This document shows positions 56,628 through 60,796 of a stretch of DNA of 64,000 bases, piece by piece. The translations under genes were made by a program, and so were the position numbers. Where the stretch lies: positions 32,001 through 96,000 of the forward strand of contig CAWFAK010000012.1 in NCBI GenBank assembly GCA_963813715.1, read 5' to 3'. The notes beneath the pieces were generated by a model. That model did no database searches. It had not been told where the DNA came from and was given only the letters and a program-made list of their open reading frames with translations. Positions within the stretch are counted from its first letter, which is position 1, and the number at the start of each line of letters is the position of its first letter. The stretch comes from an uncultured Planctomycetaceae bacterium (GTDB taxonomy: Bacteria > Planctomycetota > Planctomycetia > Planctomycetales > Planctomycetaceae).

Positions 56628-58442
56628 ATGTCCACTCCCGTGGCTCAGACAGAATCGATCCCGCAGCCCATGATTCCGGTCGCCAAGCCGCGGCCGCGGC
56701 TCCGCGTTTGGCCGGCCGTGGTCATCGCCGTTGCCTATTGGGTCGCGATCGCGACGATCGTGAAACTCGACATGGTGATCTCGCAGACCTTCTTCTCGAC
56801 AGTGATCACCAGCTTCGTCACCGGACTGGCGTTCATAGTCTGGCTTTACTCCCGCCGCGCGCTACCCGGCAAGGATCGGTTGATTCTGTTGGCCGCGCTG
56901 ATCGTTGCCACGGCACTCGTCATCGTGTTGGGCGATCCGTCGGTCGGTCCGATGGGACTGATCTTTGCCGGACCGGGAATTCTCTGCACCGCCGCCGCGG
57001 TCTGGCTGTTGATCGCCCGCAAGTGGTCGACAACCGTCATCCGCAACGGGCTGTTGGTGCTGCTGGCGTTGGTCTGGGGTCAATTTCTGGCGGTTCGTAT
57101 CAACGGCGTCGACGGACGTCAGTCCGCGTCGATTAGCCCGCGTTGGCAAAAGACGGCCGAAGACCTCTATCTGGCCGAACGCGCATCGACGTCGACCGCG
57201 GCGACGCCGGCGAACGCCGAGCCTGCTGATACACACCCGCTAACGCTGGCCTCGGGAGATTGGCCCGATTTCCGCGGCGAAAACCGGCAAGGCGAGCTCC
57301 ACGGCGTCAAAATCCCCACGGATTGGAAGGCCGCGCCGCCGAAGCTGTTGTGGAAGCAACGCATCGGCCCCGCCTGGTCGTCGTTCGTGGTGTTGGGCAA
57401 TCGGCTGTTCACGCAGGAGCAGCGCGGCAAAGATGAAGCCGTCGTCTGCCTCGACGCAGCCACCGGCAAGGAGCTGTGGGCCCACCTCAACGACGGACGC
57501 TTCTCCGACGGTCAGGCCGGCGCGGGCCCGCGGTCGAGCCCCGTCTTTGCCGACGGCCGAATTTACACAATGGGCGCCACGGGCGTCGTCAATTGCCTCG
57601 ACGCAGCGACGGGCAAGCAAATCTGGTCCAAGGACGCGGCGAAAGAGGCCGGAGCCAAAGCTCCGATGTGGGGCTTTTCCAGCTCGCCGCTCGTGACCGG
57701 CGGCATGGTCATCGTCTATGCGGGCGGACCGGGAGATAAAGGCCTCCTCGCGTATCGGACGAAAGATGGCCAACTCGCCTGGTCCGCGGCGACCGGTCCG
57801 ATCAGTTACAGCTCGGCCCAGCTCGTGAAGTTCGGCACCGAAACGCAAGTCCTCTTCCTCAGCGACAACGGCTTGATCGCCATCGATCCGGCCACCGGCA
57901 AGCAGCGGTGGAGTTACGATGCGCCTGCTCCCCAGATGTGGCGCGTCGCTCAGCCGCGACAGATCGACGGCTCGGCCATTCTCTTCGGCTCCGAGGATCT
58001 GGGTCTGGTGCGGCTCGACCTGACGCCGCACAGCGACGGCACCTGGACGACGAACGTCGCCTGGAAGTCTCAGGCCCTGCGCCCGGCGTACAACGACTTC
58101 GTCTACCAGGACGGATTCGTCTACGGCCTCGACAAGGGCCTCTTGTGCTGCGTCGACGCCAAAACGGGCGAACGGCGCTGGAAGCAGGGCCGCTACGGCT
58201 TCGGCCAGATCCTGTTGCTGGCCGATCAGAAGCTCTTGTTTGTGATTTCCGAGTACGGCAAAGGCGTGCTGGTGGTGGCCACGCCCGAGCACTTTCAGGA
58301 AGTCGGGGGCTTCGAAGCGATCAGCGGCAAAACCTGGAATCATCCGGTCATCGCCCACGGCCGCCTCTACGCCCGCAACAGCGAAGAAATCGCCTGCTAC
58401 CAGCTCGCGCCGCCCGAGACGCACACGGCACAGGCGCGCTAG
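56628..58442 (+). CDS. Membrane-anchored PQQ-like beta-propeller protein
   Basis: Several N-terminal TM helices; DWPDFRG, CLDAATGKELW repeats, TWNHPVIAHGRLYARN. Confidence 0.88.
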   Translation: MSTPVAQTESIPQPMIPVAKPRPRLRVWPAVVIAVAYWVAIATIVKLDMVISQTFFSTVITSFVTGLAFIVWLYSRRALPGKDRLILLAALIVATALVIVLGDPSVGPMGLIFAGPGILCTAAAVWLLIARKWSTTVIRNGLLVLLALVWGQFLAVRINGVDGRQSASISPRWQKTAEDLYLAERASTSTAATPANAEPADTHPLTLASGDWPDFRGENRQGELHGVKIPTDWKAAPPKLLWKQRIGPAWSSFVVLGNRLFTQEQRGKDEAVVCLDAATGKELWAHLNDGRFSDGQAGAGPRSSPVFADGRIYTMGATGVVNCLDAATGKQIWSKDAAKEAGAKAPMWGFSSSPLVTGGMVIVYAGGPGDKGLLAYRTKDGQLAWSAATGPISYSSAQLVKFGTETQVLFLSDNGLIAIDPATGKQRWSYDAPAPQMWRVAQPRQIDGSAILFGSEDLGLVRLDLTPHSDGTWTTNVAWKSQALRPAYNDFVYQDGFVYGLDKGLLCCVDAKTGERRWKQGRYGFGQILLLADQKLLFVISEYGKGVLVVATPEHFQEVGGFEAISGKTWNHPVIAHGRLYARNSEEIACYQLAPPETHTAQAR

Positions 58443-58570
58443 GGACAGGCTCACTCCTCGGAGGGTGAAGCTATGAGGAGCGGTAAGAGGTAGGCCGAGC
58501 CGGTTGGTGGTTGTGCTTGAACGTGGTAAACGGAGTTTGTTGCCAACCGTTTCCACAAAAGGACACCGCC

Positions 58571-59591
58571 ATGAAATTTGCCGGCTGCGACCTACACAAG
58601 CAGACTATCACGATTTGCGTCGTCGACCAATTGCGGCGGGTCTTGGAGCGTCGGACCGTGCGTTGTGGCGAAGAGCGGAGCATCCTCGCATTTTTCGAGA
58701 GGCTCGGGGAGTTCGAGGCTGTCGTGGAAGCGACCGCCAGCTACGAATGGTTCGTGCGATTGATCGAGCCCGTGGCCCATCGCGTGTTGTTGGCTCACCC
58801 CAAGAAGCTGCGTGTGATTGCCGAGAGCACGCGTAAAAGCGATCGGCTCGACGCGCAAATCCTCGCGGAGTTCCTGGCCTTGGAGATGATTCCGACGTCT
58901 TACCGCGCGACTCCGCGGCAGCATGAGCATCGACGACTGGTGCGTCAGCGGGGCGGCGTTCAACGGCGATTGACCTCCGTCAAGAACCGTCTGCGCCGCA
59001 TTCTCTGCGACTACAACGCGGATCGTCCCAGTCTGTTCACCGTGGACGGGTTGGCGTATCTCGCCCAAGTGCCTCTCTTGGGAGCGGATCGGTTCGCCGT
59101 GGATCAAATGGTCGAAGAGTTGCACTTCGGGAGGCGTCAGCTGCTGGCCGTCAACGCCCGGCTGAAGGAGTTCGCCGAGGCGGCGCCGCTTTGCGAGCAG
59201 GAAAGCGCGGACGCTGTTGCGGACGATCCCCGGAGTGGGCTTCGTGACCACCGAAGTTGTGCTGGCCGAGCTGGCAGACATTGATCGCTTCGGTTCGCAA
59301 AAGCGGGTCGTCGCTTACGCAGGGCTCTCACCGGGTCAACGCGAGAGTGCGGGCAAGAGTCGGGAGCTGCACCTGGAGAAGAACGGTTCGACGCTGCTGC
59401 GCTCGACGCTGGTCGAAGCCGCCTGGCGGCTGGTTCAGCACTCGTTACGTTGGCGTCGGATTTATGAACGATTGAAGTTGCGCGTGCGTGCCAAGAAGGC
59501 GATCGTCGCCGTGGCCCGCCGGTTGTTGTGCCTGATGACAGCGATCTTGAAGACGGGCCAACCCTACTCGCTCAGCCAGCAACCGACTTAA
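58571..59591 (+). CDS. IS110-family DEDD transposase/recombinase (frameshift near 59205)
   Basis: MKFAGCDLHK, VVEATAS, RKSDRLDA (RuvC-like DEDD); TIPGVG, YAGLSPGQRESAGK and KKAIVAVARRL (C-terminal domain). Confidence 0.93.
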
Positions 59592-59639
59592 ATCCCTGAC
59601 CTTGGCAGGAGAGCACAAAACAAAACATCGATCGAAAGC

Positions 59640-59835
59640 GCTGCGACGACCCACAGACGACCCCGCCCCCGGCCATGAAGGCGTTCCCTCAAAAGAGCGA
59701 CCTTCGAAGGGTGAATGGGGCGTCTCTCGAAAGTCGGCTTCCTGGCGACATCGACGGACCTGTTCCAGACCGTTGGTGATCCCGAATAGATGGTTGAGCG
59801 TACCGCATCGCCCAGATCACCACTTCAAACGCAAA
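59640..59835 (+). ncRNA. Predicted bridge/seek RNA in the IS right end
   Basis: Stem-flanked internal loop carrying target-matching CCCCGGCCA and AGGGTG, followed by donor-matching ATAGATG and CTTCA; boundaries approximate. Confidence 0.7.
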
Positions 59836-59868
59836 AACCAACCCTTGACGCTACCCTTCTCATAGATG

Positions 59869-59983
59869 GCCGGGGCGCTCCGCGTAGCGGAAGCCCCGGA
59901 ACATCGCCGACATCATTTCGTTAGTCATGCCTCTTTGAAGTGCCAAGACGGGGGCTTCCGCGACGCGGAGCGCCCCGCCACCC
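59869..59983. repeat. REP/REPIN-like inverted pair whose left arm is split by the IS
   Basis: The reconstituted arm GGGTGGCCGGGGCGCTCCGCGTAGCGGAAGCCCC is near-complementary to 59951-59983 (GGGGCTTCCGCGACGCGGAGCGCCCCGCCACCC). Confidence 0.8.
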
Positions 59984-60069
59984 GTCGGGACCCGGGACTG
60001 GCCGAAGACCTCCGCGCAGGCTATAGAATCTCGCCCCGTTCGGGCTGATCGCAAGGGCCGGCTATCAAC

Positions 60070-60101
60070 AAAAAAGCCCGCGGACATTCCTCCGCGGGCT
60101 T
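60070..60101 (-). terminator. Intrinsic terminator
   Basis: AAGCCCGCGGA/TCCGCGGGCTT hairpin with a T tract on the minus strand. Confidence 0.8.
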
Positions 60102-60133
60102 GTGTGGTGCTCAGATTGCCACGGGGCAAACGC

Positions 60134-60796
60134 CTAGTCCTTCTTCGCGTTGTGGCTGATGGGAATCGTCACGCAGTACTTGCCGAACATGTTGATCACC
60201 AGCGTCGCCTTGTTGTCCTTGACGTCTTTGATCGTGAGCGCGAGATCGGCCTTGGGCGCGTCGGTGGCCTCTTCGAACGACGACTTCGACAACGGCTCGT
60301 TGCCGCCGCTATACACGTGCAGCTGCCAATCGTCTCCCTCGGCGTGCTTGACGCTGCAGACCAGGCAGGTAATGTCGCGTTCTTCGTCTTCGGTCTTGAA
60401 CTTCAGCTTGCGGAGCTGCTTGTCGGTCGCCGGCTTGCCGTCGACGAGCGGATTGAACTCGGGCGACATGAAGATATAGCACAGGCCGACGCCGCGGTCC
60501 TTCTCCGAGTCCTTGGTGTCGCGGTCTTCGCGAAAGCCTTTGAGCGGGACCAGGATGATGCCCTGGTGCGCGTTCGGATTGAGCAGTCCGACCGCCTTCT
60601 CCGCGTCGGGATCGACTTTGACGGGCAGGTCCTTATAGGTCTTGGTGAGTAGCTCGGTCAGCTTGGCTCCGAATTCCTTCGCGACGTCCGGCTCCATTTC
60701 CGCGAGCGGGCTGTCTTCCGCCCGGCACTTGGTGCCAGCCCACAACACGCACGCCGCCGCACACAGGAAGATCGGAATCAGCTTTCTGGCAAACAT
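60134..60796 (-). CDS. Secreted hypothetical protein (paralog 1)
   Basis: Signal peptide; aligns along its length with 61100-61813. Confidence 0.75.
   Translation of the reverse strand: MFARKLIPIFLCAAACVLWAGTKCRAEDSPLAEMEPDVAKEFGAKLTELLTKTYKDLPVKVDPDAEKAVGLLNPNAHQGIILVPLKGFREDRDTKDSEKDRGVGLCYIFMSPEFNPLVDGKPATDKQLRKLKFKTEDEERDITCLVCSVKHAEGDDWQLHVYSGGNEPLSKSSFEEATDAPKADLALTIKDVKDNKATLVINMFGKYCVTIPISHNAKKD

Follow-up and report, generated by a model that had tools for sequence, protein, structure and literature searches.

The right end of a planctomycete IS1111-type element very probably encodes a folded guide RNA for its insertion site and its own ends

We analysed a stretch of 64,000 nucleotides (nt) of DNA from an uncultured Planctomycetaceae bacterium (assembly GCA_963813715.1, contig CAWFAK010000012.1, positions 32,001 to 96,000), hereafter referred to as the window, in which an IS1111-type insertion sequence of 1,399 base pairs occupies positions 58468 to 59866 of the + strand. 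The right end of this element very probably encodes a folded guide RNA that matches both the insertion site and the element's own ends. The reading that we favour, at a probability of about 0.87, is that of an IS1111-type element with a bridge RNA on the + strand of its right end and two guide loops in that RNA. An earlier note on the same DNA, written from the sequence alone, had proposed an RNA-guided recombinase of an IS110 element with right-end guides for the target and for the junction of the excised circle, and this proposal is supported by covariation among homologues. The mechanism was described in 2024, and the element is a clear natural example of it, not a new kind of system.

The predicted bridge RNA (or long seekRNA) would comprise approximately 150 nt, from about 59655 to 59800 on the + strand, within the 275-nt right end, and its two internal loops appear to be built alike. 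In the target loop, CCCCCGGCCA would pair with the top strand of TG+GCCGGGG and AGGGUG with the bottom strand of GGG+TG, and in the donor loop, GCUUC would pair with the core G and the left end AAGC, and AUAGAUG with ATAGA of the right end plus TG, on the bottom strand. With this RNA bound, a DEDD/serine recombinase would bring the junction of the excised circle (right end-TG-left end) to a GGGTG/GCCGGGG site that resembles a repetitive extragenic palindrome (REP), and strands would be exchanged at the TG core. By analogy with characterized relatives, we infer that this RNA is produced, that the recombinase binds it and that it guides the recombination.

Target guides covary with the insertion site

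Homologous elements were collected by a protein scan of genome contigs, which gave 7 loci, and by a search in six frames of 398 genomes that belong to the same family, in which 33 genomes matched at E ≤ 1e-40 and loci L020 to L049 were returned. The comparative set consists of the window element and 19 loci (L022 to L040; 47–75% protein identity), of which L022, L026 and L030 duplicate L015, L016 and L014, respectively; L028, which is nearly identical to L027, was left out of the statistics. The homologues use about ten different targets, and near-identical copies of the element were found in Planctomycetaceae bacterium sequences. When the loop segments were compared with the insertion sites of the homologues, as the earlier note had suggested, both target guides were found to change with their own flanks (0 of 20,000 permutations for each).

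In a fold of positions 59640–59850, the target loop spans 59655–59725, carries CCCCGGCCA on its 5′ strand and AGGGUG on its 3′ strand, and is closed by GACG-A-CCCC/GGGG-CGUC and GAAGGCG/CG-A-CCUUC. This arrangement, with the two target guides on opposite strands of one internal loop between these two stems, had been read from the letters by the earlier note; it was seen in the single-sequence fold and is conserved among the homologues. The outer stem is formed by AGACG-A-CCCC (59655–59664) and GGGGCGUCU (59717–59725), a conserved pairing in which 98.7% of the alignment cells are paired and six of the nine pairs change on both sides. The inner stem-loop (GAAGGCG ... CG-A-CCUUC, 59677–59705) is paired in 76.3% of the cells of its helix, with five of seven pairs changing on both sides, and ends in a variable apical loop (59684–59697); among the copies within the genome, differences inside the RNA core are confined to positions 59688–59692 of this loop. 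For both target stems together, 81.5% of 302 cells were paired (19 sequences) compared with 72.5 ± 1.2% after shuffling (0/500), and 10 of the 16 pairs change on both sides, whereas sliding the partner by 1–3 columns gave 35–53% pairing.

The right target guide CCCCCGGCCA (59666–59675) is complementary to the top strand, with its last 9 nt forming the reverse complement of TG+GCCGGGG. Across the homologues, the 10 nt located 3′ of the 5′ outer stem are likewise the reverse complement of the core and right flank of the respective element: the right guide and the right flank with core read CCCCGGCCA and TGGCCGGGG in the window, CCCCAGCCA and TGGCTGGGG in L023, ACCGGGGCC and GGCCCCGGT in L025, TCGGGCTTA and TAAGCCCGA in L027, TCGGGCCTA and TAGGCCCGA in L029, GGCGTGCCA and TGGCACGCC in L030, and CCGGGGCCA and TGGCCCCGG in L035. 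Exact matches extend over 9 nt in seven of 18 elements, 8 nt in one, 6 nt in two, 5 nt in six and 4 nt in two, and in L022, L033, L034 and L037 the guide fits its flank save for one internal mismatch. The longest match averaged 6.72 nt for cognate and 3.79 nt for non-cognate combinations (n = 18; 0/20,000 permutations).

The left target guide, AGGGUG (59708–59713), reads as the left flank and core together, with complementarity to the bottom strand. In the homologues, it corresponds to the segment directly 5′ of AAUGGGG, the suffix of which matches the left flank and core of the same element (cognate mean 5.78 nt versus 4.09 nt, range 2–10; n = 18; 0/20,000 permutations). L039 and L040 have the core CG at both junctions, and their left target guide ends in CCG. 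The two bases that follow the left target guide (AA) are identical to the first bases of the left end in 18/18 and 14/18 elements, respectively, although the changes are uninformative.

The core itself varies in a further group. In L027, L028 and L029, the core is TG at the left junction but TA at the right one, and the right target guide ends in UA. Judging from these sequences, the donor seems to supply the second core base on the left side and the target that on the right, and a match between donor and target at this position would therefore not be needed. Many of the empty REP sites in the genomes of these relatives (loci L050 to L079 included) read GGGTAAGCCC, and the variants GGGTGA, GGGTGG and GGGTAG are also common.

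The positions that the earlier note gave for the right-end motifs proved correct, namely CCCCGGCCA at 59667–59675, AGGGTG at 59708–59713, ATAGATG at 59786–59792, CTTCA at 59823–59827 and GCTTC at 59737–59741. To estimate how often they would occur by chance, we simulated the 275-nt right end 20,000 times with a first-order Markov model; the 9-mer CCCCGGCCA occurred in 0.4%, ATAGATG in 0.36% and AGGGTG in 2.4% of the simulations, and both target motifs together in 0.01%. Because CTTCA and GCTTC were present in 25 and 22% of the simulations, respectively, these 5-mers carry no weight on their own.

Probable donor guides match the ends of the element

The donor loop extends over about 59726–59798, with GCUUC (59737–59741) on its 5′ strand and AUAGAUG (59786–59792) on its 3′ strand. 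Its outer stem pairs CUCG-AA (59726–59732) with GUUGAG (59793–59798) in 85.3% of the cells, and G59793 is at the same time identical to the first base of the right flank. The inner stem (UGG-GAC/G-UCCCG, 59743–59784) carries a variable hairpin cap (59750–59777); compensatory changes occur in its apical helix, and the base of the inner stem changes on both sides in L033 to L038.

The left donor guide AUAGAUG corresponds to the right end ATAGA plus core. GAAUAGA followed by the core is found in 20/20 elements, and the core is UG in 18 of them and CG in L039 and L040, in agreement with the junction cores of these two. Because the motif is present throughout and its core switches with the junction core, the assignment of AUAGAUG as left donor guide by the earlier note can be regarded as real.

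For the right donor guide, we scanned every offset from three anchors for the reverse complement of the core plus left end. Cognate combinations exceeded non-cognate ones at one place only, a 7-mer 5′ of YUGG(C/U/A)GAC, which in the window is GGCUUCC (59736–59742). In this fixed register, the cognate mean was 4.44 of 7 positions versus 3.24 (0/20,000 permutations), with the middle five positions agreeing in 14, 14, 16, 14 and 12 of 18 elements. The probable right donor guide is GCUUC(C) (59737–59742), the reverse complement of the core G and the left end AAGC. The sequence comparison supports it moderately, whereas the support for the left donor guide is clear.

The earlier note had named CTTCA as the fourth guide and GCTTC as an alternative. 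CTTCA gave no signal in the unbiased scan and is absent from the corresponding position of L023 despite an identical left end, and GCTTC, the sole position with a cognate excess, takes its place; CCCCGGCCA, AGGGUG and AUAGAUG stand as assigned. Nor did the positions counted from GAATAGA or from the right end show a cognate excess, and four of the five CTTCA bases lie inside an inner inverted repeat (58502–58521/59824–59843).

Two further observations concern the donor loop. The base 3′ of the left donor-guide core (59793 in the window) is identical to the first right-flank base in 15/18 elements, being C in L024 and A in L027, and from its sequence this base may make a one-base, handshake-like contact with the junction formed upon insertion. 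In L039, which has the core CG, the right-donor-guide position reads CCCCCAU, which fits the left subterminal repeat (TATGGGGG) in reverse complement but does not fit the last 4 nt of the left end.

Covariation of the complete structure

When RNAalifold was applied to an alignment of the target loop only, misalignment of the variable hairpin left just 4 pairs, and we therefore counted pairs for a named structure instead. With 11 close homologues, the program returned the donor outer helix (59726–59732/59793–59798) and the inner UGG-GAC/G-UCCCG stem with its variable hairpin. The combined structure, consisting of the target outer, donor outer, donor inner and apical stems, was counted on 17 sequences: 90.0% of 420 cells were paired, compared with 82.8 ± 0.8% after shuffling (0/500), and 12 of 25 pairs change on both sides, whereas slid controls reached 31–48.5%. 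The donor and target loops share one plan, and in each of them the 5′ strand carries the guide that is complementary to the top strand. G-U pairs are frequent, with U-G at columns 146–210 in 14/17 and G-U at columns 131–221 in 13/17 sequences, and because of these pairs the + strand is favoured as the RNA strand.

Boundaries, copies and insertion sites of the element

A DNA search of the genome identified 8 full-length copies of the element with 97–100% identity and identical ends in all copies. The left junction in the window (58460–58472) reads GGAGGG-TG-AAGCT and the right junction (59861–59875) CATAGA-TG-GCCGGGG, with the left TG core copy at 58466–58467 behind the left target flank GGAGGG (58460–58465). 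GGGTG directly precedes the left end in 8/8 copies. Right flanks were read for 7 copies, of which four read TGGCCGGGG and the remaining three deviate from it at a single base (TGGCTGGGG, TGGCCGAGG and TGGCCGGGC); the eighth right end was missed by the exact-word search because one nucleotide is deleted at 59854, at a distance of 12 nt from the right end. Insertion is site-specific, with no target duplication beyond the shared TG core in these copies, and all of them reside at GGGTG/GCCGGGG-type sites at the foot of a REP-like hairpin.

In the window, the right TG core copy and the target hairpin (GCCGGGGCGCTCCGCGTAGCGGAAGCCCCGG) lie at 59867–59900. The genome also contains four empty GGGTGGCCGGGG sites, each heading the same REP-like hairpin GCCGGGGCGCTCCGC...GCGGAAGCCCCGG, and because these sites exist, the empty target that the earlier note had reconstructed is real. 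A second, inverted copy of the target hairpin (59869–59900) follows approximately 50 nt downstream (59941–59980), so that the intergenic region contains a repeat pair. Only 13 hairpin heads in the genome fit the strict pattern, and the element occupies four of these. The same whole-genome DNA search yielded no orphan copies of the RNA, with matches only to the 8 full elements and to REP sequences.

Differences among the right ends of the 8 copies lie at 59597–59634 (upstream of the RNA core), at 59688–59692 (in the target apical loop) and at 59854, and leave all guides and stems unchanged. The non-coding region 3′ of the gene comprises 275 nt (59592–59866), and that located 5′ of it 103 nt (58468–58570). 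The left subterminal inverted repeat, TATGAGGAGCGGTA (58472–58485), begins 4 nt inside the left end, and its right counterpart is TACCCTTCTCATA (59852–59864), both as read from the sequence; the two arms change together among homologues (TATGAG/CTCATA, TATGAA/TTCATA and TATGGGG/CCCCATA). A second, inner inverted repeat of 20 nt has its right arm at 59824–59843 and pairs with 58502–58521 at 80% complementarity. Among the homologues, its two arms likewise correspond between the left and right ends (cognate 10.4 versus 9.4 of 14; 0/5,000 permutations).

A long downstream non-coding region and subterminal inverted repeats distinguish the IS1111 group from the IS110 group (PMC11187229; PMC11208160). 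Because the element has both, it is assigned on its sequence to the IS1111 group of the IS110 family, which makes the IS110 label of the earlier note more precise.

The recombinase gene

The element carries one gene for a DEDD recombinase (58571–59591, + strand; PF01548, PF02371 and NF033542), which is disrupted in the window by one extra A at 59202. The reading frames 58571–59284 and 59217–59591 carry PF01548 (DEDD_Tnp_IS110, the N-terminal, RuvC-like DEDD domain; E = 6.6e-15) and the C-terminal PF02371 (E = 4e-23). An intact sister protein of 339 amino acids matched NF033542, 'IS110 family RNA-guided transposase', over residues 3–331 with 217.8 bits (cutoff 140). D7, E53, D91 and D94 are present in this protein, and the stretch around D91 and D94 aligns to ISCro4. 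The C-terminal serine motif is GLSPGQRESAG with S259 and ends in A instead of G at its final motif residue; a TA variant is recorded occasionally in the IS110 family (PMC11187229). Matches in the PDB were ISCro4 and IS621, both distant (E about 1e-13), the latter mostly through the C-terminal domain.

The extra A at 59202 is shared by four of the 8 copies (the window, L003, L004 and L006), and the other four encode an intact protein of 339 amino acids; L006 has a second indel at 59064. Because of the frameshift, the window copy cannot make its own recombinase, and the four intact copies could provide one in trans. A programmed frameshift was rejected, as the frames of 17 of the 19 full-length or near-full-length matches in other genomes (47–75% identity) are open and four sisters are without the extra A. 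The shared indels mean either that broken copies were spread in trans by intact ones or that some of the indels are assembly errors. The extra A is absent from the contigs of all four public sequencing runs that we examined. The earlier note had called for a frame-repaired transposase in a functional test; because half of the genome copies are already intact, no repair is needed. Among the homologues, L022 and L032 contain one in-frame stop each. L032 is without the left end and the first 36 codons, and its upstream sequence resembles another gene, possibly one that is reverse-transcriptase-like.

Public sequencing runs and a possible junction promoter

Most of the sampled words of the element were present in 20 public runs, 6 of which are RNA libraries. 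We examined three metatranscriptome runs and one DNA run, all as assembled contigs. In one RNA run, a single contig of 1,420 nt spans the element (58463–59883). Transcription cannot be read from such contigs because they give no ends, strand or level and because DNA may be present in RNA libraries. The joint of a circle junction was not seen in the contigs of the four runs.

A −35-like TTGACG lies 16 nt from the right end (59845–59850, + strand) and is conserved; TTGAC(G/A) occupies the same place in all 17 elements shown. By its sequence and position, it is a possible −35 half of a promoter that would form at the circle junction. The −10 hexamer that the junction would supply, 17 nt downstream, is GAAGCT here (a match at 2 of 6 positions) and GAAACT in most relatives, and is weak.

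Weighing of alternative explanations

Several results weigh against the interpretation of the right end as a bridge RNA with two guide loops. Contigs that span the element were present in three metatranscriptome libraries, but DNA carry-over is possible and they are no direct sign of an RNA, and a promoter scan of the linear element found no sigma-70-like promoter. The fold energy is not exceptional (z = −0.68 for 277 nt and −1.72 for 59640–59850), and a search of 58300–60200 with E up to 10 gave no relevant Rfam match, only chance matches to microRNAs and leaders. Some right guides match their flanks poorly, with 4 nt in L032 and L038 and 5 nt in L026, L039 and L040. In the donor loop, the outer helix is the weakest of the structure (85% paired, with two pairs changing on both sides), the outer positions of the right donor guide agree in only 4/18 and 6/18 elements, and the guide in the window is GCUUCC, whereas a full match would end in CA. 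Finally, the homologues are mutually related, and counts such as 0/20,000 permutations overstate their independence. Because the homologues are kin, the argument rests on approximately ten distinct guide-target pairs.

These pairs decide against accidental similarity in a GC-rich 3′ untranslated region, an explanation to which we give hardly any credence. It could draw on the weak fold z-scores and on the frequency of CTTCA and GCTTC, each found in 22–25% of the simulated right ends; however, the two target motifs occurred together in only 0.01% of the simulations, and the agreement of about ten different guide-target pairs across homologues, that is, the covariation of guides and flanks, refutes it. 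Only slightly more credible, and still very improbable, is that the matches act at the level of DNA as a relic or mimic of the target, for example in recombinase binding or DNA strand pairing, and that no RNA is involved. This would agree with the linear element, in which no promoter was found. Against it, the target matches oppose each other in one internal loop, the stems are kept by compensatory changes, and the G-U pairs in these stems work only in an RNA of the + strand. Moreover, the family is RNA-guided by experiment (PMC11187229; PMC11208160), and the NCBIfam family that the sister protein matches is named accordingly.

The strongest competitor, although we consider it unlikely, holds that the functional RNA is a short seekRNA formed by the loop at 59655–59725 alone, that the protein reads the ends of the element through the subterminal repeats, and that the donor loop is kept for another reason, such as binding of the recombinase to DNA at the right end, the end of the transcript or a part in the junction promoter. 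The abundant published species measure 82–96 nt and contain target matches only (PMC11187229), and a protein could read the two sets of inverted repeats. The donor ends vary little among the homologues, which leaves the donor-loop covariation thin; there is little covariation in the donor outer helix, and the right donor guide is imperfect, with 5 of 7 positions in the window and 2–3 of 7 in L022, L024, L030 and L039. On the other hand, the core within AAUAGA-UG changes to CG in precisely those elements that have CG as junction core (L039 and L040), the 7-mer before YUGGCGAC tracks the left end (0/20,000 permutations), and the donor loop is laid out like the target loop and shows compensatory changes in both its inner and its apical helix. 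Long seekRNAs of approximately 150 nt have also been reported (PMC13604230).

More tentatively, the element might serve as the type example of a planctomycete IS1111-type clade characterized by mirrored loops (right guide 5′, left guide 3′), a left donor guide extended by one base (59793) in a handshake-like contact with the target (15/18), tolerance of a mismatch at the second core position and frameshifted copies that spread in trans; we regard this combination as doubtful. Spread in trans is proposed because four of the 8 copies share one frameshift.

Relation to known systems

The analysis leaves the understanding of the mechanism unchanged, and it adds a well-resolved natural bridge or seek RNA from a phylum that is not mentioned in the literature found. 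None of the literature matches listed dealt with a planctomycete bridge RNA, seekRNA, IS1111 or IS110 element, and this element may still have been described. With approximately ten natural pairs of guide and target, the close relatives provide what is in effect a retargeting experiment performed by evolution. These pairs delimit the programmable loop positions of this clade (9–10 nt on the right and 5–10 nt on the left) and the places of the donor guides. A possible use is that of a compact recombinase with a TG core.

The IS621 element has a CT core, compared with TG here, and the guide order within each of its loops is the opposite of that described above. For the target loop, the reversed order in the IS110 type is also given by PMC11187229. 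Like IS621 (PMC11208160; structure 8WT6 and related entries), the planctomycete element has a target and a donor loop with one guide per DNA strand, a 2-nt core, a REP target and the same two recombinase domains, but its RNA is located in the right end, whereas that of IS621 is located in the left end.

ISPpu9 and ISPpu10 of Pseudomonas putida are also multicopy members of the IS110 family that reside inside repetitive extragenic palindromes, and a gene for a small RNA lies downstream of that for the transposase in ISPpu9; their host belongs to a different phylum (PMC12288879; bioRxiv 10.64898/2026.03.19.712850). Plasmid-borne IS110-family transposases were at most 36% identical to the recombinase (15 best of 1,165 matching plasmid records).

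The closest resemblance is to elements of the IS1111 family. In these, the non-coding region downstream of the gene gives rise to the seekRNA (Siddiquee et al. 2024, PMC11187229), and for 93% of IS1111 elements the right end was predicted to contain a bridge RNA (Durrant et al. 2024, PMC11208160). In published IS1111 seekRNAs, the match to the top strand is located 5′ of that to the bottom strand, and this order is reversed in the IS110 type (PMC11187229). The earlier note had singled out the reverse-complement target guide being placed first; this order is present here, but because the published IS1111 seekRNAs share it (PMC11187229), it is the norm of the family and not a special feature. 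The abundant seekRNA described by Siddiquee et al. is a short species of 82–96 nt with two target matches only (PMC11187229), and a table in a 2026 review lists for ISEc11 a transposase of 339 amino acids and seekRNAs of 82 and 154 nt (PMC13604230), sizes that match those of the present element. Its predicted full RNA of approximately 150 nt also resembles the reported long seekRNAs of IS1111 elements. With ISEc11, ISKpn4, ISPa11 and ISPst6 (PMC11187229), the element shares the downstream non-coding region, the subterminal repeats, site-specific insertion, a DEDD recombinase of 339 amino acids and a segment complementary to the top strand on the 5′ side of one stem-loop. It differs from these four in its planctomycete host, in its REP-like hairpin target and in being known from its sequence alone.

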